DNA of 53,090 bases from a virus (taxonomy: Duplodnaviria > Caudoviricetes). Below the pieces are notes generated by a model. That model was not told the DNA's origin, ran no database searches, and was given only the letters and a program-made list of their open reading frames with translations. The position numbers and the translations under genes were made by a program. This document shows positions 3,646 through 30,982 of this stretch, in pieces. Positions within the stretch are counted from its first letter, which is position 1; every line of letters starts with the position of its first letter. The stretch lies in IMG/VR virus record IMGVR_UViG_3300050121_000130, positions 1 to 53,090 of that record. One strand, written 5' to 3'.

Positions 3646-5404
3646 ATTACCTTTAGCATTAAGATTAGCGCTCAAGCCGCCGGAAAGATTAACCGTTAGT
3701 CAATGGGCTGATAAAAATAGAGTGCTTGATAATATATCATCCAAGCCAGGTCCGTGGAAAACAAGTTTTGTGCCTTATACAAAAGAACCGATGGATGCGT
3801 TTACTAATAAAGAAATTGAACAAATTATTTTAGTTTGGGGAACCCAATCCGCAAAAACAGAATGTATAAACAACATGATTGGTTATGCGGTTGATCAAGA
3901 TCCTGGACCGGCCATGGTTGTATATCCTGAAGAAAAAACAGCAGAGTTTGCTAGTAATAAGCGGATTCAAACCATGGTTTTATCTACTGAATCGATTGCA
4001 CGAAAATTTAATACAAGAAGCAAGGTACTTGAACTCGATTTTATAGATATGTTTATTGCTTTAGTTAGTGCAAATTCTCCTTCACAATTGGCATCACGTC
4101 CTATAAGATATTTGTTTCGTGATGAAATTGACAAATATAATACCTGGTCTGGTGATGAGGCGAGTCCTTTAAAACTAACAAAGGAAAGAACAAAAGCATT
4201 TTCTTATAATCGAAAAATAGTAGATGCTTCAACACCTGTTACAAAAAACAAAAATATATGGCCAATGTATTTGTCTGCTGATGCCCGATATAAATATCAA
4301 ATTCCTTGTCCTCATTGTAAAACGATGCAGCCACTTGTTTTTAAACAGATAAAATGGCCAAAAGAAATTAACGACAGTTCGAAACTTGTTGAAGATGCTG
4401 CGTGGTATGAATGTTGCCATTGCAAAGAAAAAATTCACGATGGTCACAAACAAGCCATGCTTAGACTCGGAGAGTGGAAAGTAGAAAATAAAACAGTCGG
4501 CAGAATAAGATCTGTTGCCTATCATCTCAATTCTATTTATAGCCCGTTCGTTACTTTCGGGCAAGTTGCCAAAGAATTTTTAGAATCAAAAGATGAACCA
4601 AAAGATTTAATGAATTTTGTAAATTCGTGGCTTGCCGAACCGTGGGAAGCAAAAGGCAAACGTTATAAATCAGATACAATTTTAGAACATAAATCGTCAT
4701 ACAATCGCGGTAAAGTTCACCAATCATCGCAAATATTAGTCGCTGGTGTCGATGTGCAATTAGATCATTTCTGGTGGGGCGTTCGTGCCTGGGGACCTGA
4801 TATGACGTCGTGGTTAGTTGACTATGGTCGAACAGAAACTTGGACCGATATTGAAAAAATATTAAGACAACCTTATCCGATAAATGAAACAGGAGAAACG
4901 GTATTTATTAATAAGGCCTGTATCGATTCAGGATATAACACAGATGAGGTATATAAATTTTGTGCCTACAATCAGGATATTTGTGTGCCGACTAAAGGTT
5001 CTTCACGGCCACTTCGCTCCCGGTATGTCCAGTCGAAAATTGACAGAGACATTGCATTGGGATTGATTTTATATATTTTTGATCCGAATCAGTTTAAAGA
5101 TTTTATTGCCGGAAGATTAGCCCACGAAGTAAATGCACCAGGAGCGTGGATGTTGCCGGCCGATATTGATAAATTATATGCTGATCAAATTGTTGCCGAA
5201 CAAAAAGTCGAAGGTAAGTGGGAACCAATCAGCAGTCATGCACAGAATCATATGCTTGATGTTGAGGTTAATATTGCACTGGCAGCTGAATTGTGTGGAG
5301 TAAGGTATTTGTTGCCGGTTCCAGAAATGGTGGCACAGAAGCCAGAGGTACAGTCAGAAGCGAAACCATGGGTTGGAAATACGAATAATTGGATGAAGAG
5401 GTGA
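3566..5404 (+). CDS. terL: Terminase large subunit (lambda gpA family)
   Basis: PPERLTVSQWAD, GTQSAKTE Walker A variant, DEID, STP, CPHC, GVDVQ nuclease, IDSG. Confidence 0.96.
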   Translation: MLPMTSLNSSPAQAIIRKARRKRILIELPLALRLALKPPERLTVSQWADKNRVLDNISSKPGPWKTSFVPYTKEPMDAFTNKEIEQIILVWGTQSAKTECINNMIGYAVDQDPGPAMVVYPEEKTAEFASNKRIQTMVLSTESIARKFNTRSKVLELDFIDMFIALVSANSPSQLASRPIRYLFRDEIDKYNTWSGDEASPLKLTKERTKAFSYNRKIVDASTPVTKNKNIWPMYLSADARYKYQIPCPHCKTMQPLVFKQIKWPKEINDSSKLVEDAAWYECCHCKEKIHDGHKQAMLRLGEWKVENKTVGRIRSVAYHLNSIYSPFVTFGQVAKEFLESKDEPKDLMNFVNSWLAEPWEAKGKRYKSDTILEHKSSYNRGKVHQSSQILVAGVDVQLDHFWWGVRAWGPDMTSWLVDYGRTETWTDIEKILRQPYPINETGETVFINKACIDSGYNTDEVYKFCAYNQDICVPTKGSSRPLRSRYVQSKIDRDIALGLILYIFDPNQFKDFIAGRLAHEVNAPGAWMLPADIDKLYADQIVAEQKVEGKWEPISSHAQNHMLDVEVNIALAAELCGVRYLLPVPEMVAQKPEVQSEAKPWVGNTNNWMKR

Positions 5405-5433
5405 AGTGATAAATACCAAATAGATTTCACAAA

Positions 5434-5652
5434 ATGATTTTAATATCAAGAACGGGTATTGGACTTTATTGCGATCAAGCCAGAGAGTTAATGTATTGGG
5501 TTTTTGATGAAAATAATCGGATAAAAAGATATAAATTAATTAAAATTGCTGAAAAAACAGAACGATTATATCGAAAATCTCACAGATGGGATTTGGATAA
5601 CAAACAATGGTTTGAAGATTTACCTAAGCAAATAGACTATTCCAATATTTAG
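5434..5652 (+). CDS. Hypothetical protein inserted after terL
   Basis: ORF followed by a terminator-like hairpin; possible upstream ATA start at 5413. Confidence 0.55.
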   Translation: MILISRTGIGLYCDQARELMYWVFDENNRIKRYKLIKIAEKTERLYRKSHRWDLDNKQWFEDLPKQIDYSNI

Positions 5653-23134: not shown

Positions 23135-23298
23135 ACAGGGAGATGATATTATGATTGTCAATCTTAAAGTCACGGGCAAAAACCAAGTCGAAAATCCCAA
23201 CAACAGCGAATGCTCACGCTGTTAACGATATTATTGCGATAACGATTTAACCGCCACTTAGACGGTATTTTTATTTGGGTAGAAACGGGGGCGGTGGA

Positions 23299-23607
23299 TT
23301 GAGTGAACCGGCAACTTTAGAGGTAGTCGTGGCATTGATAACGCAAGTTCGTGAACATCAGGCAGAAAATTTTAAAGACTTAAAATCTCAAATTTCCGAG
23401 CAAAAAGAAACAATTGATAATCAAAACGAAAAACTGGAAAAAGCTATAAAAGATAAATGCAAAAATTGTTCCATTACTTCGATTCTTACAACGAAGGTTT
23501 TTTATCAGTGGATTGCGATAACGGCGTTAGGGACGTGGTTAAGCGTGGTTTCGTACTATTATTATTTATTGGCGGTAGAATTTTATCGTTACGTTGGTAA
23601 ATCATGA
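23299..23607 (+). CDS. Membrane protein, holin/antiholin-like
   Basis: Coiled coil plus C-terminal TM; first gene of the lysis region. Confidence 0.55.
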   Translation: MSEPATLEVVVALITQVREHQAENFKDLKSQISEQKETIDNQNEKLEKAIKDKCKNCSITSILTTKVFYQWIAITALGTWLSVVSYYYYLLAVEFYRYVGKS

Positions 23608-24071
23608 ATATGAGAGGATTTGTTAAAACTCATTTTATGTTGGCAGTTGTGATGGTCGTTATTATTCCGATGGGATTGATATATTTGAATTATTACTCCC
23701 AAGCGCGGGTTATAACGGGCGAAAGTCAAGAAGGCAAGGAAATGTCTGACCACGTTTTTATAACGGCTCATAACGCCGAAATTGATCGGCTAGAAGATAG
23801 GTTGGAAGCTGCAAACACGAGCAAAGAATATCTAAGAAACCGTACCCTTGCATTTGCTGTTAGTCCAACAATAGTGCCTGTAAAAACGGTTGAAAAAGTT
23901 GTTGAAAAAGAATCGAATTATGCCGAAAAGGATTATCAACCTCAAACACACTCCGCTTACATTCCCGAACCGATAAAAAAACCGCCCAAAGCGAATATCC
24001 TGCATCAGATCATGGCTCATGGTGGCAGTTATACTGATGCTTATCAGCGAGCGCAAAAAGGAGGGAAGTAA
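23604..24071 (+). CDS. Membrane-anchored coiled-coil protein (i-spanin-like)
   Basis: N-terminal TM, EIDRLEDRLEAAN coiled coil. Confidence 0.5.
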   Translation: MNMRGFVKTHFMLAVVMVVIIPMGLIYLNYYSQARVITGESQEGKEMSDHVFITAHNAEIDRLEDRLEAANTSKEYLRNRTLAFAVSPTIVPVKTVEKVVEKESNYAEKDYQPQTHSAYIPEPIKKPPKANILHQIMAHGGSYTDAYQRAQKGGK

Positions 24072-24337
24072 TGTTTAAAAACAACCTTAAACTGCTGTTT
24101 CAAAATTCTCCTTTGATATTGTCAGATACCGACGATCCCAAAGATATAAGTCTAACAAGGGTAATCATATTTATTTTTGCAATAGCCACCATTATTGGTG
24201 GCCTTGTTATTTTAATTTGGTTTAGATCAGAAGCATTGCAGTTTGTTGGTTATTGGCAGGCTTGGTTAGCGAGTTTTACGACAATGGTCAGCGGTAATAT
24301 CGCAAAGAAAATATTTAATAGGGGAGGAAATACATAA
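24071..24337 (+). CDS. Putative holin
   Basis: Two hydrophobic segments, basic C-terminus, directly before the lysin. Confidence 0.65.
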   Translation: MFKNNLKLLFQNSPLILSDTDDPKDISLTRVIIFIFAIATIIGGLVILIWFRSEALQFVGYWQAWLASFTTMVSGNIAKKIFNRGGNT

Positions 24338-24943
24338 ATGACAGATGAACAGTTAGCTTGCGAAATTGCAAAGGGTATCGGATCAACGGGCGTGGAAGGC
24401 GGCTACAATAGCGTGTCATGTTCTACTGCTGGAGATTATCCATCAATGGGAATATCACAGTGGGAAGGACTTGGAGGACGAGGGGATACCTTGCTGGGGT
24501 ATATTGACGGAGGAAACAAATTTGCTGGAAGAAGTTATTCAGATATTCGGGATAACGGCGGACTTTCTGATTTACAAGGTTTATTAGATTCTACACAAGG
24601 TCAAGCAGCACAGAATGATATTTTGACTAATGATTGCCTAGAAATGTACTTACCAGCATTAAAACGTATCCCGGGATTTGATGATAGCAGATGCATGATT
24701 TATGCAGGTATATGGTGTCCAACAAGTCAGGACGTAGTACAACGGTTTTTGACTAATAGGTATGGCCAGTATGATTTGACTAATTTAGAGGCCGTACGGG
24801 ATATTTTTTGCGACCAATATTATATTGCTGCAAGTGTAGGTCCCAAATATGCTGAAGGGTACGCTAACAGGGCTAATAATACTTTTGATTATGTGTCAAA
24901 TCTGGATTTGTCGGCGTATGGTGTTCCACAATATGGAGTATAG
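24338..24943 (+). CDS. Putative endolysin (lysozyme-like, no cell-wall binding domain)
   Basis: EGGYNSVS...GDYPSMGISQW motif, GYANR near the C-terminus, follows holin. Confidence 0.7.
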   Translation: MTDEQLACEIAKGIGSTGVEGGYNSVSCSTAGDYPSMGISQWEGLGGRGDTLLGYIDGGNKFAGRSYSDIRDNGGLSDLQGLLDSTQGQAAQNDILTNDCLEMYLPALKRIPGFDDSRCMIYAGIWCPTSQDVVQRFLTNRYGQYDLTNLEAVRDIFCDQYYIAASVGPKYAEGYANRANNTFDYVSNLDLSAYGVPQYGV

Positions 24944-24955
24944 GAGGGCGAGTCA

Positions 24956-25105
24956 ATGTGTCCTTACAAATGCCCAAACTGTTATGTTGGTGATAACTAC
25001 TCCGGATGCGCCAGATACAAGTCGGCCACAATTCATGGGATTGAAAATGTGACAGATGATAGGAAGGTTTTAGATCATGGCAGGTTGCTGGAATTATCAA
25101 AGTAA
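24956..25105 (+). CDS. Small Cys-rich protein (49 aa)
   Basis: AGGAGG RBS; MCPYKCPNCY...; not in ORF track. Confidence 0.5.
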   Translation: MCPYKCPNCYVGDNYSGCARYKSATIHGIENVTDDRKVLDHGRLLELSK

Positions 25106-25291
25106 ATTTAAATAAGTATCAAAAAGGCGGTTGTCATTAAAATTAGTCGCCTAAAATTTTAATTGGAGGTGACAATATGAGTGAACAAAAAAAGGCTGCT
25201 CACACAATTGGCGTTGTAGAGCAGTCAAAAGAAAAGATTATTACTAAGTTTGGTAATACAACTGTAGTTATGACTAAAGACTCAATTATGG

Positions 25292-25531
25292 CTACAGTTC
25301 AATAGAAACAGTCCCGTCTGCATTAGTTATAAACTTTTTGTTTGATTTGACGATAATCTTGTCGGCGTATTGGGTCATCTCCAAAACTAAACCATTTGGG
25401 TATGTTGAGACGTTTTTTATGCAGTCGGGCGTCTGAGTTATCTCTTTTTTTATATCCGTAAACTCAATACCAAATGGGGTAAGAATAGTAGGGAAAGCAC
25501 CAGTAGCATATGTATATATGTATTCATCCAT
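25292..25531 (-). CDS. Antisense moron protein
   Basis: GGAGGTGA RBS, own sigmaH-like promoter, downstream minus-strand terminator near 25187-25226. Confidence 0.75.
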   Translation of the reverse strand: MDEYIYTYATGAFPTILTPFGIEFTDIKKEITQTPDCIKNVSTYPNGLVLEMTQYADKIIVKSNKKFITNADGTVSIEL

Positions 25532-25559
25532 AAATATCACCTCCCTTCAAGGGAGATAC

Positions 25560-25583
25560 TTCGACAAAAACCAATATTTTCCT
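25560..25583 (-). promoter_or_regulatory. SigmaH-like promoter
   Basis: Minus strand AGGAAAATATTGGTTTTTGTCGAA. Confidence 0.6.
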
Positions 25584-25650
25584 ATCTGGTTTCAAAGAGA
25601 TTCGGCTAACCCGGATCTCTATTTTTAATAAAAATTTGGAGGAATGTAAG

Positions 25651-26031
25651 ATGGCAGACGAAACAACTACGACAGACCCGGCAGCAGTAATCCCGGCAAT
25701 AACTGACACTCCGGCAACAGATACCCCAGCAGTGGTACAAACTGACACGCAGAAAGCTATCACAGCCGTGGAGACAGCTTTACAGTCGCTAAAAACGGCA
25801 AGCGGCGATTTGATCACGGCTGAAATTGCGGGGCTTGAGGCAACGCTCACAAGTCTGAAAACACAGGCCGAAGCCGAAGCAGCAGCAGTGGAAACTGCAG
25901 TTAAAGGCGAGCTCACAAAAGTTGAAACAGCAGAAAAAACATTCGCGGCAACTTATGGCACAGTGATTCTGCACACGTTTTACATTATCACATTGCTTTA
26001 TATTGCTGGCAGACTTGCCAATCTATTCTAA
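25651..26031 (+). CDS. Ala/Thr-rich helical protein with C-terminal TM
   Basis: GGAGG RBS; C-terminal hydrophobic segment. Confidence 0.7.
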   Translation: MADETTTTDPAAVIPAITDTPATDTPAVVQTDTQKAITAVETALQSLKTASGDLITAEIAGLEATLTSLKTQAEAEAAAVETAVKGELTKVETAEKTFAATYGTVILHTFYIITLLYIAGRLANLF

Positions 26032-26174
26032 TGGACGCATTTTTATTGGATGATTTATCTAAAATTCGGGACGTGATTAACAGGTTGGAAAACTATGATC
26101 CGACATTATTTGCGGATACGATTGAATTTTTGATGAGTGAAGCGAGAAAATTAGAAAATAGATTGGAGGACTGA
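26031..26174 (+). CDS. Small hypothetical protein (47 aa)
   Basis: TAATG coupling; MDAFLLDDLSKIRD... Confidence 0.5.
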   Translation: MDAFLLDDLSKIRDVINRLENYDPTLFADTIEFLMSEARKLENRLED

Positions 26175-26180
26175 TTCAGA

Positions 26181-26792
26181 TTGACTGACATAAAAAATTA
26201 TATTATTGCTCATAAAACTGCGATTATTATTATAGTCGCAGTTATTTTGTTGGCTGGCGCCTACTTTTTAGGCCGTAATCATGCAACTACAGCGGTAAAA
26301 GAAGCCGAGCCCGTTGTAGTGTCGCAGGATAACTCAACAAACGTTAATGCCCTGCAAAACCTTCTGAATATCGCTGAACAAAATGCCAAAGACCTTCAGG
26401 CTAAAATTGCCGCTATTCAAGCCGGTCACGCCACCCCAGTAGCAAATTATTATGTGACAGCTCCAACAGTAGAAAAAGCCGCCGATACTGTTCAGCAGCA
26501 GATCAAAAATAATGATCCCACATTGCCGCCTGCTGCGCTCGAAAAAACGGATAGGACTGTTGTCACGGCGATTACAAAAGATTCAACAGGTGCCACGTTG
26601 CCAGCCGATCAGCAGAAAGTAGAAGTGTATAAGATTGATCTGGACCATCACATTGAAGTCGGTGGTGGTGCTGGAATTATGAATGGTAAAGCCGTTGCCG
26701 TAGCGGCGGTGCAGTACAATACGAAAAATATTGCTTATGAGGTAGTCGGGAACAAAGATAGTGGTATTGGAATAGTGAAATATAGGTTTTAA
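26181..26792 (+). CDS. Envelope-spanning protein: N-terminal TM, coiled coil, C-terminal beta-strand anchor (candidate spanin)
   Basis: TM at about aa 14-31; LQNLLNIAEQNAKDLQAKIAAIQ; ends EVGGGAGIMNGKAVAVAAVQY...GIVKYRF. Confidence 0.65.
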   Translation: MTDIKNYIIAHKTAIIIIVAVILLAGAYFLGRNHATTAVKEAEPVVVSQDNSTNVNALQNLLNIAEQNAKDLQAKIAAIQAGHATPVANYYVTAPTVEKAADTVQQQIKNNDPTLPPAALEKTDRTVVTAITKDSTGATLPADQQKVEVYKIDLDHHIEVGGGAGIMNGKAVAVAAVQYNTKNIAYEVVGNKDSGIGIVKYRF

Positions 26793-26809
26793 TGTGGTAT
26801 AATAAAGCT

Positions 26810-26887
26810 ATACAACCACTTTAAGTGGTCCAAAACGACACACGCAAAAAAAGCACTCAGCCTGTAAATGGTTGAGTGCTTTTTTTA
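26810..26887 (+). ncRNA. Putative small RNA with its own promoter and terminator
   Basis: Extended -10 TGgTATAAT (26795-26803); hairpin ACCACT-TTA-AGTGGT then CCAAAAC; terminator 26846-26887. Confidence 0.55.
26846..26887. terminator. Bidirectional intrinsic terminator
   Basis: A7-GCACTCAGCC/GGTTGAGTGC-T7. Confidence 0.85.
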
Positions 26888-26934
26888 TGCCTAAAAATAA
26901 ATTTAAAATATCGCAATTATTTATATAAAATGTG

Positions 26935-26963
26935 TTGCTTTAAGTGTGTAGTTATAGTACAAT
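26935..26963 (+). promoter_or_regulatory. Sigma-A promoter of the accessory operon
   Basis: TTGCTT-17 bp-TACAAT with AT-rich upstream region. Confidence 0.7.
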
Positions 26964-27035
26964 ATAGACAAGAGGTAAGGGAAACCTCAAATAAACTGAG
27001 TCAGTCAGCATTGAGCGTGACTGCAAGGAGATAAA

Positions 27036-27287
27036 ATGAAAAAGTTTTATGCAGGAAAAAGCTATATGGGAACCAATTATACTTATGAGTCAGAATGCTG
27101 GTCAGCATACGCTTTCGGCAGCAAGGCCGAACGTGATGAATGGGTAGAAAAGAATGAATGGGATCAGAACACTAGCCAGTACGTCGCTGAAGCAGTTACC
27201 AGAACAGTAGCTTACAAAATTGCAGGTATCGACAGTAAATATAAAACACCAGTAGTGGAAGAAAATCGGTTGTCTTACAAATATTAA
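27036..27287 (+). CDS. Small hypothetical protein (accessory operon gene 1)
   Basis: AAGGAG RBS; AFGSKAERDEWV. Confidence 0.8.
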   Translation: MKKFYAGKSYMGTNYTYESECWSAYAFGSKAERDEWVEKNEWDQNTSQYVAEAVTRTVAYKIAGIDSKYKTPVVEENRLSYKY

Positions 27288-29620: not shown

Positions 29621-30859
29621 TCACGGCTTCGCAAGGTTTAACTTGCGGAGCTTTTTTATTTTGCTAATCGGTTTGCTAATCTCTTTGCTAATCTTTTTCT
29701 TTCCAAACATATCATCCATTGCCGTAGCTGTTTCGTTTTGCATATCATTTGCAACGTGCTGGTAGTAGTTGGCTGTAAAACTAGACTTCTTATGGCGGAG
29801 CTTCTTCGATACAATTTTAACGTCAATTTTTTGTCTAAGGAGCAGGGTAGCGTGAGTATGTCGCATGTCGTGAATTCGAATAACAGGCAACTTCATCTTT
29901 TCTTTGTCTTCTTCTTTAATTTTTTCGTCATTATCAATTTTGATATTTTGATTCTTAATGAATTTTATGAAATCATGATAGAGCGAATTCGGATATAACG
30001 GCGATCCGTCTTCGTGGCAACACACATATTCTATTTTTTTAAAGCACGGACCGAGCTGTAATTTATTTAATTTTTGCTGTTTCAATTCATTTTCAAGAGC
30101 AAGAATAACAACATGTGGAATTGGTATGTATCCTTCACTGCTGTCTGTTTTTAACGGGCCGAGTTCTAATTGCTTTGTTTCTCTGTTCAAACTTAAACTG
30201 TTTCTAATAAAAGCCGATCTTTCTGCTAGATTTATATCTTCCCATCTAAGACCGCATATCTCGCCACGCCGTAATCCGCACAAAAACCCCAGCAGAGCAA
30301 CTATATATAAAGATGTAGGTTTGGCTAGGTCAAGAAACCTTTGAACCTCTTCTGGCGTATATACGGCATTATGCGGGGCGTTTCGTTTCGGTGAATCAAC
30401 AGATGCACACGGGTTTTTACTGATTAACTGCCAGTCAACCGCTTTATCTAATGCTTGTTTTAAAACTGAATATTGACATTGAACCGAAGTAGGCCGCAAA
30501 CCTCTTTCTCGCTCGGTGTTTAAATATTCCTTAATTTTTAACGGGCTTAGCTTTTCTAATTCGACACTACCGATAATTTTAATGATGTTTTTAATTTTAA
30601 AGCTATAGCTTGATGAGGTCCCTTCTCTCTTATCTGGCTTTATTTCAACATCAAGCCATTTGTTTAAAAAACTCTCAACGGTAGTTTTTTCCGAAAAAAC
30701 AACTTCCCCACGAGAATAATCGGTAATTAACTCTCTCTCTTTTCGTTGAGCATCACGCAAAGACGGACCAGCATTAATCCATTTTTGCTTTTTTTTGTTT
30801 TGAGCATCGCGGTAGGTAACTATTACAGAATAGTTATCGCCGCGTTTTTTTATTGCCAT
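29621..30859 (-). CDS. int: Tyrosine integrase
   Basis: GLRRGEICGLRW, LKT, RIHDMRHTHAT, LRH, YYQH; N-terminal arm-binding domain; GGAGG RBS before ATG 30859. Confidence 0.97.
   Translation of the reverse strand: MAIKKRGDNYSVIVTYRDAQNKKKQKWINAGPSLRDAQRKERELITDYSRGEVVFSEKTTVESFLNKWLDVEIKPDKREGTSSSYSFKIKNIIKIIGSVELEKLSPLKIKEYLNTERERGLRPTSVQCQYSVLKQALDKAVDWQLISKNPCASVDSPKRNAPHNAVYTPEEVQRFLDLAKPTSLYIVALLGFLCGLRRGEICGLRWEDINLAERSAFIRNSLSLNRETKQLELGPLKTDSSEGYIPIPHVVILALENELKQQKLNKLQLGPCFKKIEYVCCHEDGSPLYPNSLYHDFIKFIKNQNIKIDNDEKIKEEDKEKMKLPVIRIHDMRHTHATLLLRQKIDVKIVSKKLRHKKSSFTANYYQHVANDMQNETATAMDDMFGKKKISKEISKPISKIKKLRKLNLAKP
29660..29693. repeat. Integrase arm-type sites, right (inside int 3' end)
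   Basis: TTTGCTAATC x3 at 12-bp period (29660, 29672, 29684). Confidence 0.8.
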
Positions 30860-30982
30860 AGATAAACCTCCCTTTAAATAATAAAAAAACATAGCATCAA
30901 TAGTGGCTGCGATGTTTAGGTAAATAATCAATAGCGTCTACAATTTTTGATATATTTCGACATTCATTAACAAAAATAGAAG

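Follow-up and report, generated by a model that had tools for sequence, protein, structure and literature searches.

A candidate lipoprotein-free, envelope-spanning lysis protein of phages of diderm Firmicutes

The gene and its place in the lysis region

The last gene of the lysis region in a 53,090-base IMG/VR virus record encodes a candidate envelope-spanning lysis protein, which is the subject of this work. The record as a whole is the stretch of DNA that was analysed and is called the window below; its completeness is estimated at 73%. The gene is referred to as the target gene, and its features and neighbors are collected in Table 1. An earlier reading of this DNA (hereafter the original prediction) flagged exactly this open reading frame (ORF), and the ORF is real. 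It has a ribosome-binding site at a suitable place, and its start codon is backed by homologues that open at the same residue (MT.IKNY).

The target gene is followed by a stable hairpin with a T-run. This hairpin is intrinsic-terminator-like and closes the lysis cassette, although a separate consensus terminator scan missed it. No promoter-like site scoring at least 10/12 was found 5' of the target gene; the one site nearby reaches 9/12 and lies across the start codon. With the strong hairpin behind it, and with the same position relative to holin and endolysin in all 48 related loci described below, the gene is the last one of the lysis region, as first supposed. The lysis module of temperate Firmicutes phages usually sits between the tail genes and the integrase. 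According to passages of a preprint (10.1101/606087), Negativicutes prophages retain that layout despite their exit through two membranes, and no spanin is mentioned in them.

Table 1. Features of the window that bear on the target gene (residue numbers refer to the protein encoded by each gene)
Feature	Position	Strand	Size or residues	Remarks
Terminase, portal, capsid and tail module	3.5-23.1 kb
Transmembrane (TM) protein, first of the lysis region after the tail genes	23604-24071	+	155 amino acids (aa)	N-terminal TM segment, residues 3-21
Holin candidate by position	24071-24337	+	88 aa	Membrane protein, TM segment residues 24-42; no family match
Protein in the endolysin slot	24338-24943	+	201 aa	Putative endolysin by position
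Cys-rich ORF after the putative endolysin	24956-25105	+	49 aa
Insert ORF	within 25177-25620	+	42 aa
Insert ORF	25292-25540	minus	82 aa
Terminator-like hairpin in the insert	25596-25620
Tail-anchored acidic coiled-coil protein	25636-26031	+	131 aa	Single C-terminal TM segment, residues 110-128
ORF between the tail-anchored gene and the target gene	26031-26174	+	47 aa	No family match
GGAGGA ribosome-binding site	26165-26170	+		10 nucleotides (nt) 5' of the TTG start; read from the sequence
Target gene	26181-26792	+	203 aa	TTG start; phrog_10797; candidate envelope-spanning lysis protein; from the ORF list
Putative signal-anchor TM helix	26220-26273	+	residues 14-31	Hydrophobic; N-terminus predicted cytoplasmic
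Predicted periplasmic alpha/beta domain	26286-26651	+	residues 36-157	Conserved; fold without known relative
Four amphipathic beta strands	26652-26789	+	residues 158-203	Candidate outer-membrane anchor with C-terminal signal of the type read by the beta-barrel assembly machinery (BAM)
Terminator-like hairpin and T-run	26847-26885	+		Free energy -23.2 kcal/mol, z -5.53; 0/200 shuffles as stable
Integrase	29621-30931	minus

Family and annotation

The target protein matches phrog_10797, a family of unknown function, with an E-value of 1e-41, and the alignment pairs residues 14-180 with positions 15-169 of the 194-position profile. A collection clustered at 90% identity holds 308 homologues of about 205 aa, and at 50% identity the family counts 134 clusters. 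Profile searches with the target in Pfam, NCBIfam and PDB gave nothing meaningful. Weak matches to two profiles of Rz-like spanins, PHROG 1026 and 1327 (E about 0.007), cover residues 10-85, which comprise the TM helix and the first helices after it. The nearest clusters in the ESM Atlas are viral hypothetical proteins or 'putative glycoprotease', and none belongs to an informative named family. Public records label the homologues 'hypothetical', 'glycoprotease' or with other unsupported names. The 'glycoprotease' label is rejected here, since no protease family of Pfam or NCBIfam is matched.

The predicted N-terminal anchor

The original prediction placed a TM helix at the N-terminus, and this is confirmed. 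Residues 14-31 are hydrophobic, and the AlphaFold2 model of the whole protein (mean predicted local distance difference test, pLDDT, 86.3) has one continuous helix over residues 12-35 at pLDDT >90. Statistics for the family were taken from an alignment of 87 sequences (A1), of which two rows (P0181 and P0225) are signal-peptide variants. The uncharged N-terminal run has a median length of 19 residues and a median start at residue 14 (n=87). The 12 aa before the hydrophobic run carry a net charge of +1.6 and the 8 aa after it +0.25 (n=87). At the level of sequence, the hydrophobic run, this positive-inside bias and the helix are those of the inner-membrane TM anchor of spanins.

A different reading is that the N-terminus is a cleaved signal peptide, in which case the mature product would be an ordinary outer-membrane protein of the phage, acting from the periplasm to weaken or perforate the outer membrane but linking no two membranes. 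The window member itself has A25-G26-A27 near the end of its hydrophobic stretch, where cleavage may occur, and this weighs against a retained anchor. A small-x-small motif near the end of the run is found in 26 of the 87 rows, and in the variant represented by P0181, P0225 and a protein of locus L078 (see below) the same beta module does stand behind a Sec signal peptide. However, the motif is missing from the other 61 rows, and the run is long and starts late, behind a charged N-terminal stretch of unusual length. In the true variants it is shorter, with 14 aa in P0181 and 9 aa in P0225 (an N-terminally shorter record), and is followed by A|AEE. The continuous modelled helix also speaks against cleavage. 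We therefore consider this reading improbable. With its long run, without a conserved small-x-small site and set against the P0181, P0225 and L078 proteins, the N-terminus of the target looks like an uncleaved type II signal-anchor rather than a Sec signal peptide.

The predicted periplasmic domain

Residues 36-157, modelled alone from an 85-row alignment, give a pLDDT of 94.8 and a predicted template modelling score of 0.86. The model consists of short helices, including those at residues 55-62 and 66-80, and a beta hairpin, and the domain ends in the near-invariant strand (Q)KV(D/E)VYKI(N/D)L. In A1, the TM region is variable and this middle domain is conserved, with P86, D124, T126, V147, V149, Y150 and K151 near-invariant. 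A Foldseek search with residues 36-157 alone gave nothing at E<=0.001, and a VIA fold search with the same residues reached a best Z of 2.5 among 48,161 chains. Judging from the model, the region would have a new fold or else be arranged in a non-globular way. The coiled coil of the original prediction survives at best in the two short helices named above, and the rest of it gives way to a region modelled as one ordered domain.

The C-terminal beta module

Four strands are predicted by AlphaFold2 at residues 158-167, 170-179, 184-191 and 194-200. Placed in hairpin register, they have an apolar face (I, V, A, Y, F) and a second, Gly/Ala-rich one that also carries E, Q, K and R. The C-terminus of the window protein reads G-I-G-I-V-K-Y-R-F. 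At least three C-terminal subtypes exist in the family, the window type ending in KYRF, a QRNY type ending in W-K-[VI]-x-F and a majority type ending in Y-[NT]-V-x-E-W. By hhalign the three are homologous to one another (93.5-97.5% versus about 1% for reversed controls), and in each of them apolar and polar columns alternate strictly and aromatics stand at the strand ends. The amphipathic, Gly-rich strands ending in Y-R-F that were originally noted are recovered in the model, and the amphipathic pattern recurs across the subtypes.

The BAM beta-signal has as its consensus a last strand in which hydrophobic residues alternate and which ends in an aromatic. The GIGIVKYRF ending of the target, with its alternating columns, has this form. 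The chain ends in W, F or Y in 118/120 close homologues and in 83/97 full-length cluster representatives, and the terminal aromatic is conserved well beyond chance.

Searches with the structure returned little. Foldseek with the whole model against PDB gave nothing at E<=0.001. The wide VIA search with the whole model reached a best Z of 5.1, and all of its matches were generic four-strand meanders over residues 157-203. Weak neighbors of the beta module include a TamAB hybrid-barrel chain (9xdc_B) and BAM/EspP hybrid-barrel chains (Foldseek rank 8, E 0.8; VIA Z 4.0), all within noise. A BFVD search returned two uncharacterised family members and nothing else. A homologue search with residues 146-203 alone found 6 close relatives, word matching limiting its reach. 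A three-copy prediction of residues 36-203 (alignment A1, run without controls) gave ipSAE values of 0.02 and 0.09 against a mark of 0.42, which says nothing either way on a barrel.

These features leave room for another explanation, in which the target is a periplasm-facing lysis accessory that is anchored in the inner membrane and stays out of the outer membrane throughout. As such it might serve as an antiholin or a timing sensor, of which T4 RI is an example, act on the tether between OmpM and peptidoglycan, or pair by beta-augmentation with a host outer-membrane protein that serves as the o-spanin. An N-terminal TM helix followed by a compact, highly conserved periplasmic domain resembles a binding or regulatory module, and no relative of the beta module could be detected among outer-membrane proteins. 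However, a regulator confined to the periplasm has no evident need for four strands with a strictly apolar face, for aromatic strand ends or for a terminal F or W conserved across three divergent subtypes. We regard this explanation as possible but rather unlikely, and further evidence on it is given below.

The beta module in other proteins

The beta module is found on other proteins as well. In P0181 and P0225 (168-170 aa), a beta module of the window type comes after a Sec signal peptide and a Q-rich coiled coil. A gene of the P0225 type lies in metagenome locus L078 (4944-5489) at the last position, which the target gene holds in the window, and its product ends in KYRF. The L078 cassette runs in the order of a TM protein, a holin-like protein, a GH25 hydrolase, a Cys-rich ORF, a tail-anchored ORF, the P0225-type gene and an HTH_17 gene. 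Its Cys-rich and tail-anchored ORFs are homologous to those of the window (24956-25105 and 25636-26031), and the beta module of its last protein shares 47% identity with residues 155-203 of the window protein (E 4e-14). Since the same module follows a Sec signal peptide in L078, the module should be extracytoplasmic. Its presence on a secreted coiled-coil protein without an inner-membrane anchor is what would be expected of an anchor module and argues against a periplasmic accessory. By its sequence, the L078 protein looks like an analogue of the o-spanins anchored by beta strands instead of lipid, which suggests that the L078 form is a two-component counterpart of the one-chain form of the window.

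In L078 and in locus L065, there are long overlapping ORFs in a second frame (L078:4991-5341; L065:4982-5404 and 4992-5474), in both loci with the same relative frame offset. They encode an N-terminal hydrophobic segment and coiled-coil-like sequence, and they recall the embedded arrangement of Rz/Rz1. They may be a compositional artefact, as Q-rich coding keeps alternative frames open.

The A1 profile also gives partial matches to its C-terminal 50 positions only, in genomes of the class of Veillonella parvula. Six of these were examined. The proteins are 137-212 aa long, and five of the six have an N-terminal TM segment, a different middle part and a QRNY-type module; the called ORF of the remaining one (L061) has no evident N-terminal TM segment. 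One of the six, L063:1677-2315 (minus strand, genome G177), encodes 212 aa with an N-terminal TM segment and a QRNY-type module ending in HVWKF, and lies between genes for DUF1290 and ftsA. It may be an envelope-spanning host protein of the division cluster of a Negativicute. A second small family with a TM segment, a different middle and a QRNY-type module is seen in L058 (G231), L059 (G279), L060 (G259) and L062 (G312). In L058, which is another of the six, the gene follows a T7-type terminase RNaseH-like domain and a 60-aa TM ORF (by eye) and precedes an HTH_17 gene. None of the tested endolysin seeds found a match nearby.

Conserved position behind the endolysin

The relatives of the target gene were located by a pattern scan of one genome per species (185,579 species), which used a smaller alignment (A2) because A1 was too diverse. 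It found 56 loci. The counts of gene context cover the 48 loci with at least 700 nt of upstream flank. In all 48, a peptidoglycan hydrolase lies upstream on the same strand within 2.5 kb. By tblastn with five seed proteins, the hydrolases are of the Amidase_3 (19 loci), GH25 (12), VgrG3-like_C (8) and unassigned window (1) types, and the remaining 8 loci carry Amidase_2. The gap between the hydrolase and the family gene is -23 to +44 nt in 23 of 37 classified loci, which suggests translational coupling. Holins of the Phage_holin_4_1 family lie upstream of the hydrolase in L019 and L003. The gene thus belongs to a lysis cassette with endolysin and holin, as the spanins do.

Such a position suits a lysis accessory of any kind, including the periplasmic one considered above. 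It may also be asked whether the target is a lysogenic-conversion or superinfection-exclusion envelope protein, like Bor, Lom and Cor of lambda, that merely adjoins the lysis genes. The last gene before the terminator and the accessory and integrase region is the usual place of a moron, and in the window a minus-strand ORF separates the target gene from the putative endolysin. Morons are sporadic, however, and this gene stands behind a hydrolase in 48/48 loci, with five hydrolase types and in several Negativicutes families. It often overlaps the stop codon of the hydrolase, and it is without a promoter-like site at the above threshold. Since the place is kept behind five unrelated endolysin types, the gene is to be seen as a core component of the cassette and not as a moron, and we find a conversion or exclusion role very improbable.

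Taxonomic range

A Negativicutes label is carried by 52 of the 56 loci (Selenomonadaceae, Selenomonas, Centipeda, Veillonella, Megasphaera, Anaeroglobus and Acidaminococcus). The labels of the other four (L025, L049, L037 and L038) are Lachnospiraceae metagenome-assembled genome (MAG) in two cases, Streptococcus MAG and 'uncultured bacterium'. The DNA of these four is 83-95% identical to prophage loci of Acidaminococcus or Veillonella, both Negativicutes, and the foreign labels are likely to stem from contamination in MAG binning.

Sampling by class gave the same picture. The A1 profile matches 119 of 401 genomes in the class of V. parvula at E<=1e-3, and 86 of 401 at E<=1e-5 by hand count. 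In the class of the 'Lachnospiraceae' MAG, 1 of 399 genomes matches, which is the query MAG itself (two genomes were unscored). In that of the 'Streptococcus' MAG, 2 of 301 match, namely the query MAG and one weak match to the N-terminal part. A tblastn search of 50,697 phage records returned no match. The restriction to phages of diderm Firmicutes that had been predicted is therefore borne out in the two other classes sampled and in the phage records, and homologues are not common in phages of monoderm hosts within these samples (399 and 301 genomes).

A restriction to Negativicutes would also be expected of a periplasmic accessory if its partner were OmpM or another envelope component of diderm Firmicutes. 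Phage_holin_4_1, Amidase_2, Amidase_3 and GH25 are common in Firmicutes phages of monoderm hosts. The cassettes share these holin and endolysin families, yet no homologue of the target turned up in the two other classes sampled or in the phage records, which weighs against such an accessory.

Host envelope machinery

Both described types of spanin need an outer-membrane lipoprotein, and the delivery of lipoproteins to the outer membrane depends on LolA and LolB. The premise of the original prediction, that Negativicutes have no canonical Lol pathway, agrees with our searches. LolA (PF03548) was found in none of 101 sampled genomes of the V. parvula class and Rz (PF03245) in none of 151, and Omp85/BamA (PF01103) was present in 60 of 61; each control was positive in E. 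coli. In line with this, PMC5007114 states that no LolA or LolB homologue was found in any Negativicutes genome, and a preprint (10.1101/2021.05.31.446380) describes Lol as practically absent from Terrabacteria.

The window itself is equally poor in lipoprotein signals. The target protein contains no Cys, and no ORF with a lipobox is found on the plus strand of 23200-27100, so that the expectation of a lipoprotein-free protein holds in and near the target gene. A regular-expression match at 24366 was considered as a lipoprotein partner and rejected; it lies inside the frame of the putative endolysin and has no hydrophobic signal sequence. In this respect the target departs from the known spanins. 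Their outer-membrane anchor depends on a lipoprotein signal, which is missing here together with LolA.

Neighboring genes of the lysis region

The stop codon of the holin candidate adjoins the start of the putative endolysin (24337/24338). The protein in the endolysin slot has zero matches in Pfam, PHROG, NCBIfam and PDB, and a BLASTP comparison with the VgrG3-like endolysin of Veillonella gave no match. Its homologues fill the endolysin slot in other loci (L065:4401-4985, 69% identity; L021:597-1178, 56% identity). The protein holds a G-V-E-G-G-Y ... G-I-S-Q-W-E-G stretch. It may be an undescribed type of endolysin.

The Cys-rich ORF that follows has a counterpart at the same place in L078 (50% identity, E 1e-13). 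Relative to L078, the lysis region of the window is divided by an insert of about 0.5 kb (25177-25620), which may be a moron.

The tail-anchored protein has homologues directly 5' of the family gene in 8 of the 48 loci (L002, L003, L005-L007, L021, L023 and L031), and that of L078 is 45% identical over the full length. It has a conserved ...F..KYG motif, and no family match was found for the three copies scanned (window, L003 and L023). It is an accessory gene in a subset of cassettes and could be an inner-membrane partner or a holin accessory.

Proposed role in lysis

The place of the target gene as the last lysis gene, its restriction to phages of diderm hosts, the presence of BamA in hosts without Lol or Rz, the inner-membrane anchor and the portable module of outer-membrane type together lead us to propose that the target is a one-chain, lipoprotein-free functional analogue of the phage spanins, specific to phages of diderm Firmicutes (Negativicutes). 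We consider this proposal probable by a small measure, somewhat above an even chance. Of the inverted lipoprotein-free spanin originally envisaged, the architecture, the range and the fit to the host repertoire stand, and all computable predictions came out as expected; the coiled coil and the homology to YadA do not.

We infer the topology of the protein, its BamA-dependent insertion, its oligomeric state, its function in lysis and its mechanism (fusion or destabilisation), and the course of events would be as follows. The protein would be made late, together with holin and endolysin. Its signal-anchor would remain in the inner membrane, the N-terminus facing the cytoplasm, and the conserved domain of about 120 residues would be situated in the periplasm. 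The four-strand module with its terminal aromatic would be passed to BamA and serve as the anchor in the outer membrane, where several copies would most likely form a small homo-oligomeric barrel. The chain would then join both membranes through the peptidoglycan mesh. After the endolysin has removed the wall, the outer membrane would be disrupted by spanin-like apposition and fusion or by local destabilisation, as the third step of lysis.

Several observations, besides the possible cleavage site already mentioned, weigh against this proposal, and the main difficulty is geometric. The periplasmic part of about 120 residues is compact and ordered, not an extended coiled coil, and, if the model is right, a domain of this size can hardly span an intact periplasm. 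Either the domain is stretched out as long as the wall is in place, or the protein works in another way. The beta module raises further points. The pLDDT of the monomer model falls from about 80 to 44 precisely there, 14 of the 97 full-length representatives have no terminal aromatic (some are apparently frameshifted), and a four-strand amphipathic sheet with a terminal aromatic would also fit a soluble beta-sandwich. Profile searches in Pfam, NCBIfam and PDB revealed no homology to any outer-membrane protein family. The lysis cassette of the window is also interrupted, with the minus-strand ORF and the terminator-like hairpin of the insert lying before the block 25636-26792, and the protein in its endolysin slot is without a family assignment.

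Homology to the YadA anchor was tried and rejected at the level of sequence, which is another point on this side. The hhalign values of 0.3-5.9% for the three subtypes are no better than those of reversed controls (0.2-15.8%) in a comparison with 11 anchors from two Negativicutes genomes. The YadA anchor family PF03895 is not matched by the window protein at E<=0.1, and it does not appear among the matches listed for 10 representatives (E<=10; the best 25 of 60 for P0181 and the best 25 of 27 for P0225). The resemblance to a YadA-type anchor in the original prediction is thus one of pattern.

A broader reading joins the phage and host proteins, and we put it forward tentatively, as a whole rather doubtful. 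Diderm Firmicutes without Lol and their phages might share a four-strand, BamA-inserted anchor module of about 50 residues that replaces lipid anchors, in the form of a small homo-oligomeric barrel or of a stalled hybrid barrel with BamA. The phages would use it in a one-chain format, as in the window, and in a format of a secreted coiled-coil protein with beta anchor, as in L078, together with an inner-membrane partner. The two formats would mirror gp11 of phage T1 and Rz/Rz1, respectively, and the host would use the same architecture in L063. The periplasmic domain might be kept unfolded across the wall and fold after the removal of peptidoglycan, thereby pulling the membranes together.

In the literature that we searched, no paper deals with spanins or outer-membrane disruption by Negativicutes phages, or with spanins anchored by a beta barrel, and the route of diderm-Firmicutes phages through the outer membrane is not addressed. 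A conserved last lysis gene with an inner-membrane helix and a beta module of outer-membrane type is a concrete candidate for that step, and V. parvula is genetically tractable. If the proposal is true, the family solves the last step of phage lysis in a third structural way. It would also be the first case, as far as we are aware, of one short chain being both an inner-membrane protein and a BamA substrate. It would further help to study how outer-membrane proteins are targeted and how the envelope is tethered in Terrabacteria, and would allow a correct annotation of a family now labelled 'glycoprotease' or 'hypothetical'.

Comparison with known systems

The likeness to YadA anchors lies in four short amphipathic C-terminal strands, predicted in the target, one Gly/Ala-rich face and a terminal aromatic. 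In YadA anchors each chain supplies four transmembrane strands to a trimeric barrel of 12. In the P0181/P0225 variant it extends to the order of signal peptide, coiled coil and four strands, which is that of the trimeric autotransporters. In the window protein, however, the preceding chain would be held at the inner membrane, so that it could not leave through the barrel as a passenger. Veillonella has genuine YadA anchors in abundance, with 13 matches in V. parvula G001. In that genome (L068 and L070-L077), YadA_anchor is not C-terminal and is followed by a further 40-100 residues, often of coiled-coil type.

Phage phiKT encodes the disruptin gp28, a small helical peptide that is cationic and amphipathic and has no membrane anchors. 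It resembles the target as a non-spanin means of disrupting the outer membrane that is encoded in a lysis cassette, and differs from it in that the target has an ordered domain and two putative anchors.

TamB, which works with TamA, and TonB, which works with TonB-dependent receptors, combine an N-terminal signal-anchor with C-terminal beta structure that engages an outer-membrane barrel. They are anchored in the inner membrane and reach the outer membrane without a lipid anchor, as is proposed for the target. However, they are large housekeeping systems of the host, whereas the target is a phage lysis protein of 200 aa, and the structural matches to them are within noise.

Rz/Rz1 share with the target the place in the cassette after the endolysin, a type II N-terminal TM segment followed by helical segments, the weak PHROG similarity and the presumed job, which is removal of the outer membrane as the last barrier. 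In contrast to them, the target has no PF03245 match (E<=0.1), no long coiled coil, no partner lipoprotein gene and no periplasmic Cys.

A further parallel is the u-spanin gp11 of coliphage T1; no sequence similarity between it and the target was detected. T1 gp11 has an N-terminal outer-membrane lipoprotein signal and a C-terminal inner-membrane TM segment, and its periplasmic part is small and not a coiled coil. PMC6116005 describes gp11 as one polypeptide, with a proposed anchorage in both the cytoplasmic and the outer membrane. The target, too, is proposed to be one chain anchored in both membranes and is encoded in a lysis cassette. Its polarity is reversed, with the TM helix (residues 14-31) at the N-terminus and beta strands, in place of Cys and lipobox, at the C-terminus. 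We would place the target, as a candidate, in the functional class of the spanins, where its principle of anchoring and its polarity would both be new.

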